From assembly GCA_963713955.1 (NCBI GenBank), contig OY970216.1, forward strand, positions 506,252-570,251: DNA of 64,000 bases, written 5' to 3'. The stretch comes from an uncultured bacterium. Lineage in GTDB: Bacteria; Patescibacteriota; Minisyncoccia; UBA6257; GWB1-50-10. How positions within the stretch are numbered: the first letter of the stretch is position 1; each line of letters starts with the position of its first letter. The notes beneath the pieces were generated by a model, which worked only from the letters and a program-made list of their open reading frames with translations, did no database searches and was not told the origin of the DNA. The position numbers were made by a program, and so were the translations under genes. Shown here piece by piece: positions 12,729 through 59,805 of the stretch.

Positions 12729-12938
12729 ATGGAAAAAATAAAAAAGAAAAAATCGCGGAAACAGGAAATATTTTTGCTCATGGCTTTTGTGATGTTCGTC
12801 ATAACGCTCCTTTCCGCAATCTATCTTGTAACGTCTCTCGGGGAAAACATAGGAGAAACGCTGAAGCTTCCGCCGATCAATAATCAGAGTGCGCAATTTG
12901 ACATCCAGGGCTACCAAAAATTAGACTTAACCCAGTAA
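12729..12938 (+). CDS. Small single-TM hypothetical protein
   Basis: Basic N-terminus plus one TM helix. Confidence 0.6.
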   Translation: MEKIKKKKSRKQEIFLLMAFVMFVITLLSAIYLVTSLGENIGETLKLPPINNQSAQFDIQGYQKLDLTQ

Positions 12939-12940
12939 CG

Positions 12941-13021
12941 GGGAGCTCGGTAAGCCGAAAAAGTGTGCGCTCCGGGGCGCTAGCCCAAGTCTTACCCACT
13001 TTTTCGCCTTACCGAGCTCCC
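12941..13021. repeat. REP-like palindromic element, family B (reverse orientation)
   Basis: Near-identical to the reverse complement of 26075-26157. Confidence 0.88.
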
Positions 13022-13046
13022 TCAGAATAAGTAAAAAGGGAGGTCT

Positions 13047-13341
13047 GCGCATGTAGTTCAGTGGGTTGAAAGCAAATTGCTTTGCTTTCAACGGGCGAAT
13101 ACCTGTGTTAATTTATATATAGTAATTTCGCCCCGGAAGAACGCGTTCCTGATATCTTCGATATAACTGGTTCGCTCGTTCGAAATGAAAAATAATGGGC
13201 ATATAGTTCAGTGGTAGAACGCTGTCCTGATAAGACAGAGGTCCCAGGTTCAATCCCTGGTATGCCCACCCATTCTTTTTCATTTCTCGCTCGCTGCCAG
13301 TTATAAGACAGAGGTCGTAGGTTCGATTCCTACCATGCGCA
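13047..13341 (+). tRNA. Interrupted outer tRNA-Ile(GAT)-like gene with D-loop and anticodon-loop insertions, possibly degenerate
   Basis: Acceptor GCGCATG/CATGCGC perfect, T arm GTAGG-TTCGATT-CCTAC, D strands GTTC (13056) and GAAC (13139), CT-GAT-A at 13149-13154; anticodon stem CGTTC/GACAG has 2 mismatches. Confidence 0.6.
13197..13268 (+). tRNA. tRNA-Ile(GAT), nested inner copy
   Basis: Full cloverleaf: GGGCATA/TATGCCC, CTGTC-CT-GAT-AA-GACAG, CCAGG-TTCAATC-CCTGG. Confidence 0.95.
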
Positions 13342-13423
13342 CAAGCGAGTGAAATGGAAAAGTATTTTTACATTTCCGAGCGCAGTCGCATGGGAACCGA
13401 AAGGTCACCATACGCACCAATCA

Positions 13424-13495
13424 GGGCCCGTAGTTCAGTGGCAGAACGCCGCTTTTGCAAAGCGGAGGTCAGGAGTCCAATTCTCCTCGGGTCCA
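13424..13495 (+). tRNA. tRNA-Ala(TGC)
   Basis: Cloverleaf with G3:U70, CCGCT-TT-TGC-AA-AGCGG; T-loop reads TCC instead of TTC. Confidence 0.92.
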
Positions 13496-13610
13496 CCTTG
13501 AGTATGTGCTCAACTTGTGTTCGAAAAAGCCTCATGAATACTAGAATTTCTCGGCCAGACCTAGCTTTTCCAAGTTCAAGTCCTCGGGGTATTGATTAAG
13601 AGTAGAAAGT

Positions 13611-17703: not shown

Positions 17704-18375
17704 ATGGGGAGGGGGATAAAACCGCAGGGGAAAGTTAAAATTAAATGGTCTCCTGCATTTGCCTACGTGATCGGGGTTATTACAACCGATGGCAACCTTT
17801 CTATTGATAAAAGACATATCAATATAACATCAAAGGATGAGGAGATGGTTAAAACGGTTGCGAAGTGCATTGATATCAAAAACAAGATTGGTCGTAAAGC
17901 AAGAGGCGGCGAGAAAGAAAAGAAATATTTCGTACTCCAATTCGGCGATGTTTTATTTTATAACTTTCTCCTCTCGATCGGCCTCACGCCGCATAAATCA
18001 AAGACGCTCCGTTCTATCGCCGTGCCTGATAAATACTTCTTCGATTTCTTGCGCGGGCATTTTGACGGTGACGGAACTTTTTATTCCTACTGGGATCTGC
18101 GCTGGAAATCAAGTTTTATGTTCTATACGGAATTTATTTCGGCCAGCAAGGCTCATATTGAATGGTTGCGGGAGAGAATATGCAACATCCTGAAAATACA
18201 CGGCCACATTACAAGAAGTGGGAATAACTCCGTGTATCAATTGAAATATGCCAAGGGGGAGTCATTGAAATTACTGGCTAAAATGTACTACAATAAGGAC
18301 GTAATTTGTTTAAGGAGGAAGAAAGATAAGGTAGAGAAAGCCCTAAAAACAGATTCAAACGCGCGGGTGTCGTAA
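17704..18375 (+). CDS. Free-standing LAGLIDADG endonuclease-like protein
   Basis: Two motifs, AYVIGVITTDG and DFLRGHFDGDG; stop codon lies inside tRNA-Leu. Confidence 0.85.
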   Translation: MGRGIKPQGKVKIKWSPAFAYVIGVITTDGNLSIDKRHINITSKDEEMVKTVAKCIDIKNKIGRKARGGEKEKKYFVLQFGDVLFYNFLLSIGLTPHKSKTLRSIAVPDKYFFDFLRGHFDGDGTFYSYWDLRWKSSFMFYTEFISASKAHIEWLRERICNILKIHGHITRSGNNSVYQLKYAKGESLKLLAKMYYNKDVICLRRKKDKVEKALKTDSNARVS

Positions 18376-18447
18376 CTGGTAGCCGAGCATCCTTGAGGTG
18401 GATGTGCCCGTAAGGGCGTGGAGGTTCGAGTCCTCTCCCGCGCACCA
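18361..18447 (+). tRNA. tRNA-Leu(GAG)
   Basis: CATCC-TT-GAG-GT-GGATG, long variable arm, encoded CCA. Confidence 0.95.
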
Positions 18448-59327: not shown

Positions 59328-59606
59328 ATGTTCTATACCTATATCCTTCTGTGTTCAAGTAGTAAGACACCGAGAAAAATATTCTACGTCGGATCATCCG
59401 ATGACCTGAAAAGAAGATTCGACGAGCATAGAAGAGGTAAGGTGAAAACTACGAAAATATTTGATAAGATATTTTTGGTGTATTACGAAGCTTGCAGGAA
59501 TAAGACCGATGCCAGAAAAAGAGAGTTGCAGCTAAAAACCGGGTTCGGCAGAGGATACATCAACAAAAGGATAGCGACAGATCTAAGTAGGGCGGGATTC
59601 GTATAG
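59328..59606 (+). CDS. Small GIY-YIG nuclease
   Basis: YTYIL...FYVG...DLKRRFDEH, YYEA, ARKRELQLK. Confidence 0.9.
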   Translation: MFYTYILLCSSSKTPRKIFYVGSSDDLKRRFDEHRRGKVKTTKIFDKIFLVYYEACRNKTDARKRELQLKTGFGRGYINKRIATDLSRAGFV

Positions 59607-59805
59607 TGGCAGTACGCTTGCTTCCCAAGCCCCGTACAATAACAACGATCAAAGTTACTTGCGAGCATGGTTTAGTGGCAGAATGCGACCTTCCCAAGGT
59701 TGAGACGGGGGTTCGATTCCCCCTACTCGCACAAATTATCACAAGCAATCGTTGTTATTGTAACAGGGCAAGCAAGACGCACCGGTTCGATCCCGGTATC
59801 CCGCA
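59592..59805 (+). tRNA. Outer tRNA-Gly(CCC) interrupted in the anticodon loop by a 143-nt insertion
   Basis: Joining 59592-59627 to 59771-59805 gives a canonical 71-nt cloverleaf: GCGGGAT/ATCCCGC, CTTGC-TT-CCC-AA-GCAAG, ACCGG-TTCGATC-CCGGT. Confidence 0.85.
59661..59731 (+). tRNA. tRNA-Gly(CCC), nested inner copy
   Basis: GCGAGCA/TACTCGC (one C:A mismatch), CGACC-TT-CCC-AA-GGTTG, GGGGG-TTCGATT-CCCCC. Confidence 0.88.

Follow-up and report, generated by a model that had tools for sequence, protein, structure and literature searches.

A bacterial tRNA-Ile(GAU) gene nested in an interrupted tRNA-Ile(GAU) gene: anatomy, recurrence and a probable origin by hairpin-armed insertion

The window analysed here is a stretch of 64,000 nucleotides (contig OY970216.1, positions 506,252 to 570,251, assembly GCA_963713955.1) from a bacterial genome that consists of a single contig of 804,691 bp and is rated 99.8% complete. 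This genome is called G000 below, other genomes are numbered likewise (G001 etc.), loci cut from genomes carry handles such as L054, and coordinates without a prefix are those of the window. Genome size, gene content (topoisomerase I, DprA and pilin-like open reading frames (ORFs)) and the nearest named relatives suggest that G000 is a bacterium of the candidate phyla radiation (CPR, Patescibacteria). At 13047-13341 the window contains a tRNA-Ile(GAT) gene, here termed the shell, with two interruptions, i.e. a 72-nt insert in the D-loop and a 151-nt insert in the anticodon loop, the latter consisting of inverted-repeat arms around the sole intact tRNA-Ile(GAT) of G000. The locus is thus a true nested gene, in which a former resident tRNA-Ile(GAU) has been split by an insert carrying a complete second tRNA-Ile(GAU). 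Its parts, all on the forward strand, are as follows.

13047-13064, forward strand: shell tRNA-Ile, positions 1 to ~19 (acceptor 5' strand GCGCATG, TA, D-stem GTTC, D-loop AGTGG)
13065-13136, forward strand: D-loop insert of the shell, ~72 nt, two hairpins, between AGTGG and AAGAAC (from the sequence and the minimum free energy (MFE) fold)
13137-13154, forward strand: shell tRNA-Ile, positions ~20-37 (AA, D-stem GAAC, G, CGTTC, loop CTGATA with anticodon GAT)
13155-13196, forward strand: left arm of the cargo insert, termed A-type (strands 13162-13170 and 13182-13192, then the 4-nt leader TAAT)
13197-13268, forward strand: inner tRNA-Ile(GAT) (ARAGORN; Rfam tRNA, 75 bits; CCA not encoded)
13269-13305, forward strand: right arm of the A-type cargo insert (strands 13276-13286 and 13297-13305)
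13306-13341, forward strand: shell tRNA-Ile, positions 38-73 (A, GACAG, AGGTC, T arm, CATGCGC, discriminator A)

Direct reading of the sequence, with ARAGORN and Rfam for the inner tRNA, found every element that a first-pass annotation of these letters had named here. That annotation had the outer 5' part end in CTGATA, which is correct (13149-13154), but this part is 108 nt long and hides the second insert of ~72 nt, which had not been spelled out.

The shell is readable over its full length. Its acceptor strand GCGCATG (13047-13053) pairs 7/7 with CATGCGC (13334-13340), followed by the discriminator A at 13341, and its T arm is perfect (GTAGG TTCGATT CCTAC). The first segment, which a scan for acceptor and T-arm pairing finds, is identical in 18/18 nucleotides to the intact tRNA-Ile of the related genome G002; the second differs from that gene solely in the first A of its leading AA (TA in G002), and the third equals it in 34 of 36 nucleotides, with GACAG in place of GAACG. 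The anticodon stem CGTTC/GACAG thereby has two mismatches, and a 14-nt tract, ATAAGACAGAGGTC, is common to the inner copy and the shell (14/14). Across the insert the loop reads CTGATA|A, and owing to the repeated ATA the junction may equally be placed at 35/36, 36/37 or 37/38.

In the 151-nt insert an outer pair of strands (TATAACTGG, 13162-13170, with CCAGTTATA, 13297-13305) and an inner pair (GAAATGAAAAA, 13182-13192, with TTTTTCATTTC, 13276-13286) close the arms around the tRNA. The part other than tRNA amounts to 79 nt, the insert is without an ORF, and the arms are single copy in G000; compared with genome G013, the inner stem shows one compensatory change, G-C to A-T. The D-loop insert, likewise single copy in G000 and with ends ambiguous by GG, consists of a hairpin with a 12-bp stem (GTTGAAAGCAAA / TTTGCTTTCAAC) and a second one, GGGCGAA...TTTCGCCC, enclosing an A+T-rich loop; both hairpins appear in the MFE structure. 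At the corresponding point of the D-loop, homologues are present in Ile and Ala shells of G001, G002, G004, G005, G006 and G041, with stem changes that are compensatory as judged by eye. A promoter within this insert was considered on account of a conserved TG-n-TAAnTT seen by eye and dropped, as a consensus scan did not call it.

Folding of the 295-nt nest gave an MFE of -110.8 kcal/mol, compared with -73.6 +/- 5.0 for 200 shuffled sequences (z -7.4, none of the 200 as good), and the structure contains the shell acceptor stem, the shell T arm, the two arm helices and the T arm and acceptor pairing of the inner tRNA. A search of 12900-13600 against Rfam returned tRNA only, with no match to Intron_gpI at E values up to 5. 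Chance is excluded as an origin of the arrangement by the fold z score, by the rarity of hits in a genome-wide scan and by recurrence in independently assembled genomes, both of which are described below.

Three further features flank the nest.

12898-12927, forward strand: promoter-like site TTGACA, 18 nt, TAGACT (10/12 matches in a consensus scan)
13350-13377, forward strand: cargo-less hairpin resembling the A-type inner stem, GAAATGGAAAA ... TTTTTACATTTC, 9 nt past the shell
13424-13497, forward strand: tRNA-Ala(TGC), the downstream partner, un-nested in G000 (ARAGORN)

The promoter-like site sits in the end of a 69-aa upstream ORF (12729-12938); in G001, G002, G004, G005 and G041 a conserved counterpart of this stretch precedes the Ile locus. 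Judged from these motifs, the putative promoter is likely to be the start of a transcript running through the shell, the inner tRNA-Ile and tRNA-Ala. A weak hint as to the cargo-less hairpin comes from metagenome contigs of other organisms, in which only 6-17 letters separate the two A-type arm strands. Two repeats of the neighbourhood are recorded here in their own right. A long palindromic repeat just 5' of the shell (12946-13026, core 12950-13021) has at least 10 copies in G000 (93-98%) and occurs at 88-100% in other genera (G004, G027, G028, G036 and others). A hairpin of the TTGAGTA..TACTCAA kind follows tRNA-Ala(TGC) (13498-13520) as well as tRNA-Asn (G000:276148-276170) and tRNA-Ala(CGC) (G000:338407-338430), and may be a shared terminator or processing signal.

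The Ile locus is syntenic across the genus, with the same small upstream ORF, and its arrangement turns over between relatives; the genomes compared are relatives and hence not independent, and all survey counts given in the following come from strict motifs and are lower bounds. In the congener G002 the shell is of the GGGCGCG type and has a D-loop insert like that of G000; it is interrupted at 35/36 by an insert with different, B-type arms (CCCCGCACCGAAAATT... / ...AATTTTGGTGTAGGGCAGG), and the intact Ile gene inside is nearly the G000 shell (18/18, 17/18 and 34/36 over the three segments) with a perfect stem CGTTC/GAACG. In G001, too, a shell with a B-type insert surrounds an Ile gene, at a locus cut by the contig end. 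G004 has three layers, i.e. a 5'-truncated shell with the A-type left arm, then a shell with D-loop and B-type inserts, then an intact Ile gene, and these layers are followed by an Ala(TGC) gene nested in an Ala shell. G013, a member of another genus, carries the A-type arms and cargo (88% identity to G000 over 201 nt) in another shell without a D-loop insert. In G005, G006 and G041 the GGGCGCG-type Ile gene is alone, intact and inverted, and an intact Ala gene follows the 5' half of an Ala shell with the D-loop insert, the 3' shell being missing. Among the orthologous Ile-Ala loci of relatives, which the first-pass annotation had proposed to align, the same architecture recurs in up to three layers.

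The A-type junction is present in 3 of 96 genomes of the family (G000, G004, G013); the c-type Ile gene is uninterrupted in G005, G006 and G041 and a shell in G002 and G013; and Gly(CCC), the second target in the window, stands un-nested in G002 and G006, half-nested in G004 and fully nested in G000. Among relatives, a given target occurs both with and without an insert, which is the pattern expected of homing-type mobile insertion. The loci of G002, G004 and G013 imply that one genome's resident gene is another's relic, that the same cassette sits in different shells and that layers accumulate. They also cast light on the mismatches of the G000 shell, which are exactly its two differences from the G002 gene, where GAACG pairs perfectly with CGTTC, and which both agree with its own inner copy. 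The GACAG tract therefore reads as a conversion or crossover tract, in line with what had been suspected from the G000 sequence alone.

That the nest is an artefact of assembly, i.e. two tRNA-Ile genes collapsed or chimeric, is barely conceivable. The best public read runs contain just 4-6% of sampled words of the genome, which leaves some room for this idea, and in four public runs the contigs that match the tRNAs, D-loop insert or arms all belong to other organisms and none spans the nest. Yet the genome is one 805-kb contig, the arms are complementary, the shell halves pair 7/7 and match the intact G002 gene, and diverged copies of the nest architecture are present in at least 15 independently assembled genomes.

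The Ile nest is not the only one in G000. A genome-wide scan for an acceptor strand and D-arm start that pair with a distant T arm and acceptor gave just five long-range matches in 805 kb, namely the Ile shell (295 nt), a Gly shell (214 nt), a Thr shell (261 nt), an intron-bearing Thr(GGT) gene and one Leu match, which is probably due to chance. Together with a Lys nest found by another route, this makes four nests in G000 (Ile, Gly, Lys, Thr), and with many more, some of them partial, in relatives and other CPR lineages, the surmise that a recurring mechanism rather than an accident is at work is borne out. The three additional nests are composed as follows.

59592-59629, forward strand: Gly(CCC) shell, 5' part, through G39 (sequence, nest scan)
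59630-59772, forward strand: CCCC-type cargo insert CCCCGTAC ... AGGGCAAG with the sole intact tRNA-Gly(CCC) at 59661-59732
59773-59805, forward strand: Gly(CCC) shell, 3' part (exact removal of 59630-59772 lets ARAGORN call a tRNA-Gly(CCC))
G000:275462-275697, reverse strand: tRNA-Lys(TTT) in a Lys shell (found by reading a CCCC-type unit)
G000:736202-736462, reverse strand: tRNA-Thr(TGT) in a Thr-like shell (nest scan, 261 nt)

The Gly nest also folds strongly (z -5.4). Its arms, which start with CCCCGTAC, finish with ...GGGCAAG and are single copy in G000, are unrelated in sequence to those of the Ile nest. In the Lys nest the cargo insert lies in the shell D-loop and an empty hairpin in the shell D-stem; shell and inner copy are 100% identical at positions 26-65 and have different acceptor stems. 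The Thr shell has an unreadable anticodon arm and left-flank hairpins that resemble those 5' of an ORF for a small GIY-YIG nuclease at G000:338082, and this nest was not found whole in 40 genomes. An ARAGORN census lists 46 tRNAs in G000, one per anticodon for nearly all boxes, and the inner Ile(GAT), Gly(CCC), Lys(TTT) and Thr(TGT) genes are each the sole intact copy. As a side observation, the sole tRNA-Thr(GGT) (G000:735505-735777, reverse strand; L041:206-478) has a 199-nt intron in its anticodon loop, which is conserved at 70-74% in G005, G009, G010, G013 and G014, is missing in G052 and has no group I match in Rfam; if it is not group I, it bears on the ability of this lineage to splice tRNA.

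The arms of the Gly nest define a family that reaches far across the CPR. CCCC-type arms have the form CCCCGYAC...GTRCGGGG followed by CAAG, i.e. the unit is asymmetric, a hairpin plus four bases, and the B-type arms of the Ile loci share its end sequences. Within the order, the search pattern CCCCGYAC-N(95-125)-CGGGGCARG matched 17 times in 16 of 401 genomes, compared with 2 matches for a reversed control, and 9 of the 17 matches hold a tRNA. A scan with one genome per species yielded at least 120 loci, many of them chance matches in high-G+C genomes; among the matches listed, 9 of 122 hold a tRNA, one of them duplicating the nest of G392, and the records are labelled Saccharibacteria, Giovannonibacteria, Doudnabacteria and others. 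Nests homologous to the Gly nest are present in G013 (Gly(TCC) in Gly(TCC)), in G057, which belongs to another family, in G181 and at L176. Cargo tRNAs, which cover at least 11 amino acids, include Ile, Gly, Glu (TTC, CTC), Ser, Ala (TGC, CGC), Leu, Val, Met, Arg, Asp and Lys, and wherever the shell can be read its anticodon is that of the cargo.

Contrary to the first impression of a common position, the inserts lie at 34/35, 35/36, 37/38, 39/40, 26/27 or in the D-loop. Among 20 nests, 13 units read CCCC...GGGG-CA(A/G)G and 7 are reversed, C(C/T)TG-CCCC...GGGG, and in all 20 the cargo tRNA runs in the direction of the shell, whichever way the unit lies. The flank before CCCC, in element orientation, ends in CA or GA in 13 of the 20, and no target duplication was seen at their junctions. 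Hairpins of the family also occur empty, both in shells (at 26/27 in G092, in Leu shells of G310, in the Lys shell of G000) and, again in G000, at intergenic sites. At L054 (G181:C6, element at 1501-1632) the cargo is not a tRNA and repeats the interrupted flank of a helix-closed small RNA-like region, so that L054 looks like a nest in a non-tRNA gene; elements with non-tRNA cargo, including this one, matched no Rfam family. Units with tRNA cargo, with nuclease cargo and without cargo can, by their sequences, be taken as one family. Two candidate relations of the family were tried and rejected, namely a role of the CCCC ends as a DNA-uptake sequence, as these end motifs are not enriched in G000 (88 and 84 occurrences, ~98 expected), and mobilization by the single Y1_Tnp (Y1/RAYT-like) ORF of G000, which has no flanking inverted repeats and none of the seven CCCC-type units listed in this genome near it.

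A crucial question is whether the shells are still used. The first-pass annotation, in speaking of an interrupted tRNA, had implied that they might be, and an intron acting at the RNA level would be the corresponding mechanism: the nest would be transcribed, both inserts would be removed by an unknown bacterial system for cleavage and ligation, and each transcript would yield two tRNA-Ile(GAU), the inner one being set free from the intron once excised. Exact excision restores an intact shell in 6 of the 20 CCCC-type nests, and in these six recognized shells ARAGORN agrees on the anticodon; the G392 shell, in which the loop has two extra T, is an exception and was called Lys. Several further shells become intact when a second hairpin is removed as well, although this test is lenient and, with ARAGORN accepting too many variants, a loose indication. 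The idea also gains from covarying shell stems, from the strong folds of whole nests, from the conserved 199-nt intron that the lineage tolerates in its sole tRNA-Thr(GGT) and from three ORFs of G000 for 2H phosphoesterase or LigT-like proteins (G000:35626-36045, 596267-596638 and 658969-659394, 27-31 bits, one with an in-frame TGA), which leave some RNA-joining capacity possible.

However, the remaining shells have deletions, mismatches, a second hairpin or only one half; the Ile shell itself has two stem mismatches, its relatives include shells with a 1-nt stem deletion, and half nests lack the 5' shell (Gly in G004) or the 3' shell (the Ala loci of G005, G006 and G041). An interrupted tRNA copy is always accompanied in its genome by an intact one, as also for the hairpin-interrupted Leu(CAA) gene of G310, which has an intact copy elsewhere. 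No splicing endonuclease EndA (PF01974), RtcB (PF01139) or Rnl-type ligase (PF09414) was matched in the 99.8%-complete G000; a control search for EndA matched four archaea. At the Ile and Gly junctions no bulge-helix-bulge (BHB) motif was seen by reading sequence and fold, without a dedicated BHB program; the junctions abut a continuous helix and do not show two 3-nt bulges 4 bp apart. The unit is asymmetric, with its extra CAAG, and occurs both ways round: this is no obstacle to insertion as DNA, whereas an RNA cutter would have to recognize two sequences and two geometries with one enzyme. Splicing at the RNA level is therefore very unlikely in our view, and the evidence favours the old shell being a dead, decaying and unspliced relic, with pristine shells as presumably fresh insertions.

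The other recurrent partner of the nests is a small nuclease gene. G000 has four small GIY-YIG ORFs.

59328-59606, forward strand: GIY-YIG ORF, 92 aa (PF01541, 50.5 bits), with its stop within the first 15 nt of the Gly shell
G000:275836-276042, 338082-338294, 565579-565803 and 651459-651665: the four small GIY-YIG ORFs (the one at 565579 being that of the Gly shell above)

For three of the four, a tRNA gene or nest follows at 33-41 nt from the ORF end: tRNA-Asn follows one of them at 33 nt, this ORF lying ~140 nt from the Lys shell, and tRNA-Ala(CGC) another at 41 nt, with an Ala fragment upstream of the ORF that matches 15 of 17 nucleotides of positions 1-17. Around the fourth lies an inverted repeat of 21 bp whose ends are of CCCC type (19/21 complementary) and which resembles an empty hairpin at G000:735172; around the modules of GIY-YIG gene and tRNA (Ala, Gly, Asn), inverted repeats beyond 9 nt were not found. 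A survey of G000 and 30 relatives gave 27 small GIY-YIG loci (one of them G000's own, those of the relatives being L208-L235), with ORFs of ~80-140 aa; per genome there are 1-15 matches (15 in G011), counts that include UvrC-size frames. Ten of the 27 loci lie within ~200 nt of a tRNA on the same strand, which is 33-47 nt downstream in four cases, 76-102 nt upstream in five and at 205 nt in one, and 17 have no same-strand tRNA within the locus. On the far side of the ORF, tRNA fragments correspond to positions 1-18 (18/18) at L230, 10-25 at L235, 18-34 at L217 and 55-72 at L225. Exact inverted repeats of at least 11 nt bracket seven of the ORFs, compared with 2 of 24 in a displaced control, and four of these seven have arm ends of CCC type. 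Arms are thus shared between nests and GIY-YIG elements: in G017 the arm around such an ORF is identical in 17 of 20 positions to the Gly-nest arm of the window, and in G015 a GIY-YIG element with CCC-type arms lies inside the 16S rRNA gene. GIY-YIG nucleases would thereby be candidate drivers of the cassettes, a link that extends to the Ile nest by analogy only.

Nests could also have been made in place, by duplication and hairpin repair without a moving cassette or nuclease, for instance when a break in a palindrome is repaired by copying the intact allele. Such local rearrangement would fit the identity of the G000 Lys shell to its inner copy at positions 26-65, the cargo of L054 that repeats the interrupted sequence, and the constant agreement of cargo and shell direction. 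It is less easily reconciled with the same arms and cargo occurring in different shells and different genera (G000, G013, G004), with inner and shell copies that mostly differ by many compensated stem changes, with arm ends conserved from Saccharibacteria to Parcubacteria-type lineages, and with nuclease genes bracketed by the same kind of arms. We regard this explanation as unlikely, if somewhat less so than RNA splicing.

The explanation that we favour, and consider reasonably probable, is that the nests are hairpin-armed DNA insertion cassettes in tRNA genes which survive by means of the spare copy, with the old gene persisting as a decaying, unspliced relic. Today, the inner gene alone would be functional. 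The inner tRNA-Ile would be transcribed by read-through from upstream, likely from the site at 12898-12927; the paired arms would isolate its cloverleaf from the homologous shell halves; and RNase P, perhaps RNase III (for which G000 has two genes), 3' trimming and CCA addition would release it. Such cassettes would stem from a class of small hairpin-armed elements common in CPR bacteria that hit structured-RNA genes and carry as cargo a tRNA, a small GIY-YIG nuclease gene or nothing; at an essential single-copy tRNA gene, only those with a cognate tRNA would leave survivors. Spread may then involve a double-strand break or recombination in a resident tRNA gene, for which a nest on incoming or sister DNA serves as the repair template, with the shell halves acting as homology arms that copy the nest into any cognate tRNA gene, and each broken end pairing with either the shell half or the inner half of the donor. 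Pairing with either half would generate a full nest, a 5'-half nest, a 3'-half nest or a plain replacement, exactly the four arrangements seen, and copying via shell halves would account for the cognate match of cargo and shell, for chimeric shells and half nests, and for repeated rounds that pile up like Russian dolls.

Several findings weigh against this explanation or parts of it. A GIY-YIG gene lies within ~200 nt at only 2 of ~23 nest loci, no nuclease gene was found in or beside the Ile nest, and the Ile arms are unrelated to the CCCC family. Several shells are pristine despite strongly diverged arms between genomes, and in an RNAalifold alignment of four Gly nests the shell stems are compensated too (24 of 60 pairs); pristine, covarying shells are compatible both with selection on the shell and with repeated new insertion. 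The three LigT-like ORFs, as mentioned, also count here. The match to RNase P RNA stays below the Rfam threshold (40 bits), although it runs end to end on the bacterial model, and the model of spread leaves the entry of the first tRNA between the arms unexplained. The RNase P RNA candidate (G000:675476-675948) is 473 nt long, compared with a 367-position model, and may itself carry inserts.

A more far-reaching version, which we put forward tentatively, might be called 'spare-part homing' and would define a new class of selfish elements, in which cassettes driven by GIY-YIG proteins of ~90 aa invade essential structured-RNA genes of CPR bacteria and, rather than splice, bring along a working copy of whatever gene they destroy. 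Possibly, and to a similarly tentative degree, tRNA genes would in this way be serially overwritten and piled up as Russian dolls, and tRNA alleles would spread horizontally on universal homology arms.

Among known systems, the nests resemble homing introns in logic and CPR rRNA-gene insertions in kind. Insertions in CPR rRNA genes, including a non-intron type encoding GIY-YIG proteins, are on record (Brown et al. 2015 as cited in Tsurumaki et al. J Bacteriol 2024, PMC11270868). As described in the main text of that source, they share with the nests the host group, small size, a location in structured-RNA genes and the fact that they belong to neither of the intron groups I and II; GIY-YIG proteins are encoded by some of them, as by the armed element in the 16S rRNA gene of G015, whose kind of CCC-type arms also encloses tRNAs in nests. 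The case for an overlap between the family of units and these reported insertions comes from the CCCC type, to which the A-type Ile arms do not belong. The rRNA insertions differ in that rRNA tolerates inserts, being fragmented or processed, whereas tRNA cannot, and the nest insert brings a complete spare target. The word tRNA occurs 0 times in the main text of PMC11270868, and the searched literature, in which supplements may hold tables of inserts, contained no description of a bacterial tRNA gene lying inside a cognate one.

Bacterial tRNA anticodon loops also harbour group I introns with homing endonucleases, which are similar in site, in patchy distribution with occupied and empty alleles, in a cycle of invasion, decay and reinvasion and in co-conversion of the exon beside the insert. 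Unlike these, the Ile insert is without a ribozyme, measures 151 nt including a 72-nt tRNA, and matches no Rfam intron model at E values up to 5; what maintains the function for the host is a spare gene rather than splicing. Archaeal tRNA introns (BHB-type, multiple and ectopic) and split or permuted tRNAs likewise use many positions (D-loop, 26/27 and anticodon loop among them), with several inserts per gene, helices that hold the halves and related inserts in different tRNAs. The nest host, however, is bacterial, EndA and RtcB were not found, junctions showed no BHB on reading, the unit lies both ways and the insert contains a second cognate tRNA.

Elements that integrate into tRNA genes, and free-standing phage homing endonucleases in tRNA clusters such as SegB of T4 (PMC2988022, PMC13096335), offer a further comparison. 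The former interrupt a tRNA gene that stays functional through replacement sequence brought along, and the latter include GIY-YIG genes beside tRNA genes that can promote inheritance of the neighbouring tRNA region. In the nests, by contrast, no integrase or large element was found and both halves of the old gene remain, flanking a whole new gene in an insert of 151 nt without an ORF; the replacement is a whole tRNA between inverted-repeat arms, and in the GIY-YIG modules it is the first 17-18 nt. With repetitive extragenic palindromic (REP)-like sequences, IS200/IS605 (Y1/HUH) elements and miniature inverted-repeat transposable elements (MITEs), the CCCC-type unit has in common a G+C-rich hairpin plus fixed tetranucleotide, insertion without target duplication and in both orientations, and a Y1_Tnp ORF in G000. 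Different from REPs and MITEs, G000 has just one copy each of the Ile and Gly arms and no enrichment of the end motifs, and no link to the Y1 ORF was found; cargo within the hairpin loop is not a REP feature either. On these tests, the Ile nest does not qualify as a BHB intron, a group I intron, an integrase-type integration or a multicopy MITE or REP.

If our interpretation holds, essential single-copy tRNA genes of the largest uncultured bacterial radiation would be repeatedly overwritten by mobile DNA that brings its own spare, a third route, besides splicing and tolerated fragmentation, by which a selfish insert can live in an essential RNA gene. It would provide a testable set of candidate tRNA-gene-specific nucleases and help to account for the peculiar insertions that rRNA genes of CPR bacteria have long been known to contain, and nests would serve as natural markers for tracing horizontal exchange among CPR lineages. 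It also calls for caution, as shells are miscalled in the tRNA annotation of such genomes: ARAGORN reported part of the Thr shell as 'tRNA-Arg(gcg)' and called the interrupted Leu(CAA) of G310 from a start after the hairpin.

Two minor observations concern other tRNA genes of G000. A LAGLIDADG endonuclease ORF (Pfam) at 17704-18375 ends within the first bases of tRNA-Leu(GAG) (18361-18447); a Leu shell fragment 5' of this ORF was considered and is not claimed, its match being 9/9 nt to the Leu anticodon loop only (shuffle p ~0.2). Finally, ARAGORN lists a tRNA with a CTA anticodon (printed as 'Pyl'; G000:190461-190533, reverse strand), a tRNA-Ile(TAT) (G000:148426-148498) and only two CAT tRNAs, which hints at possible amber reading and unusual AUA decoding.

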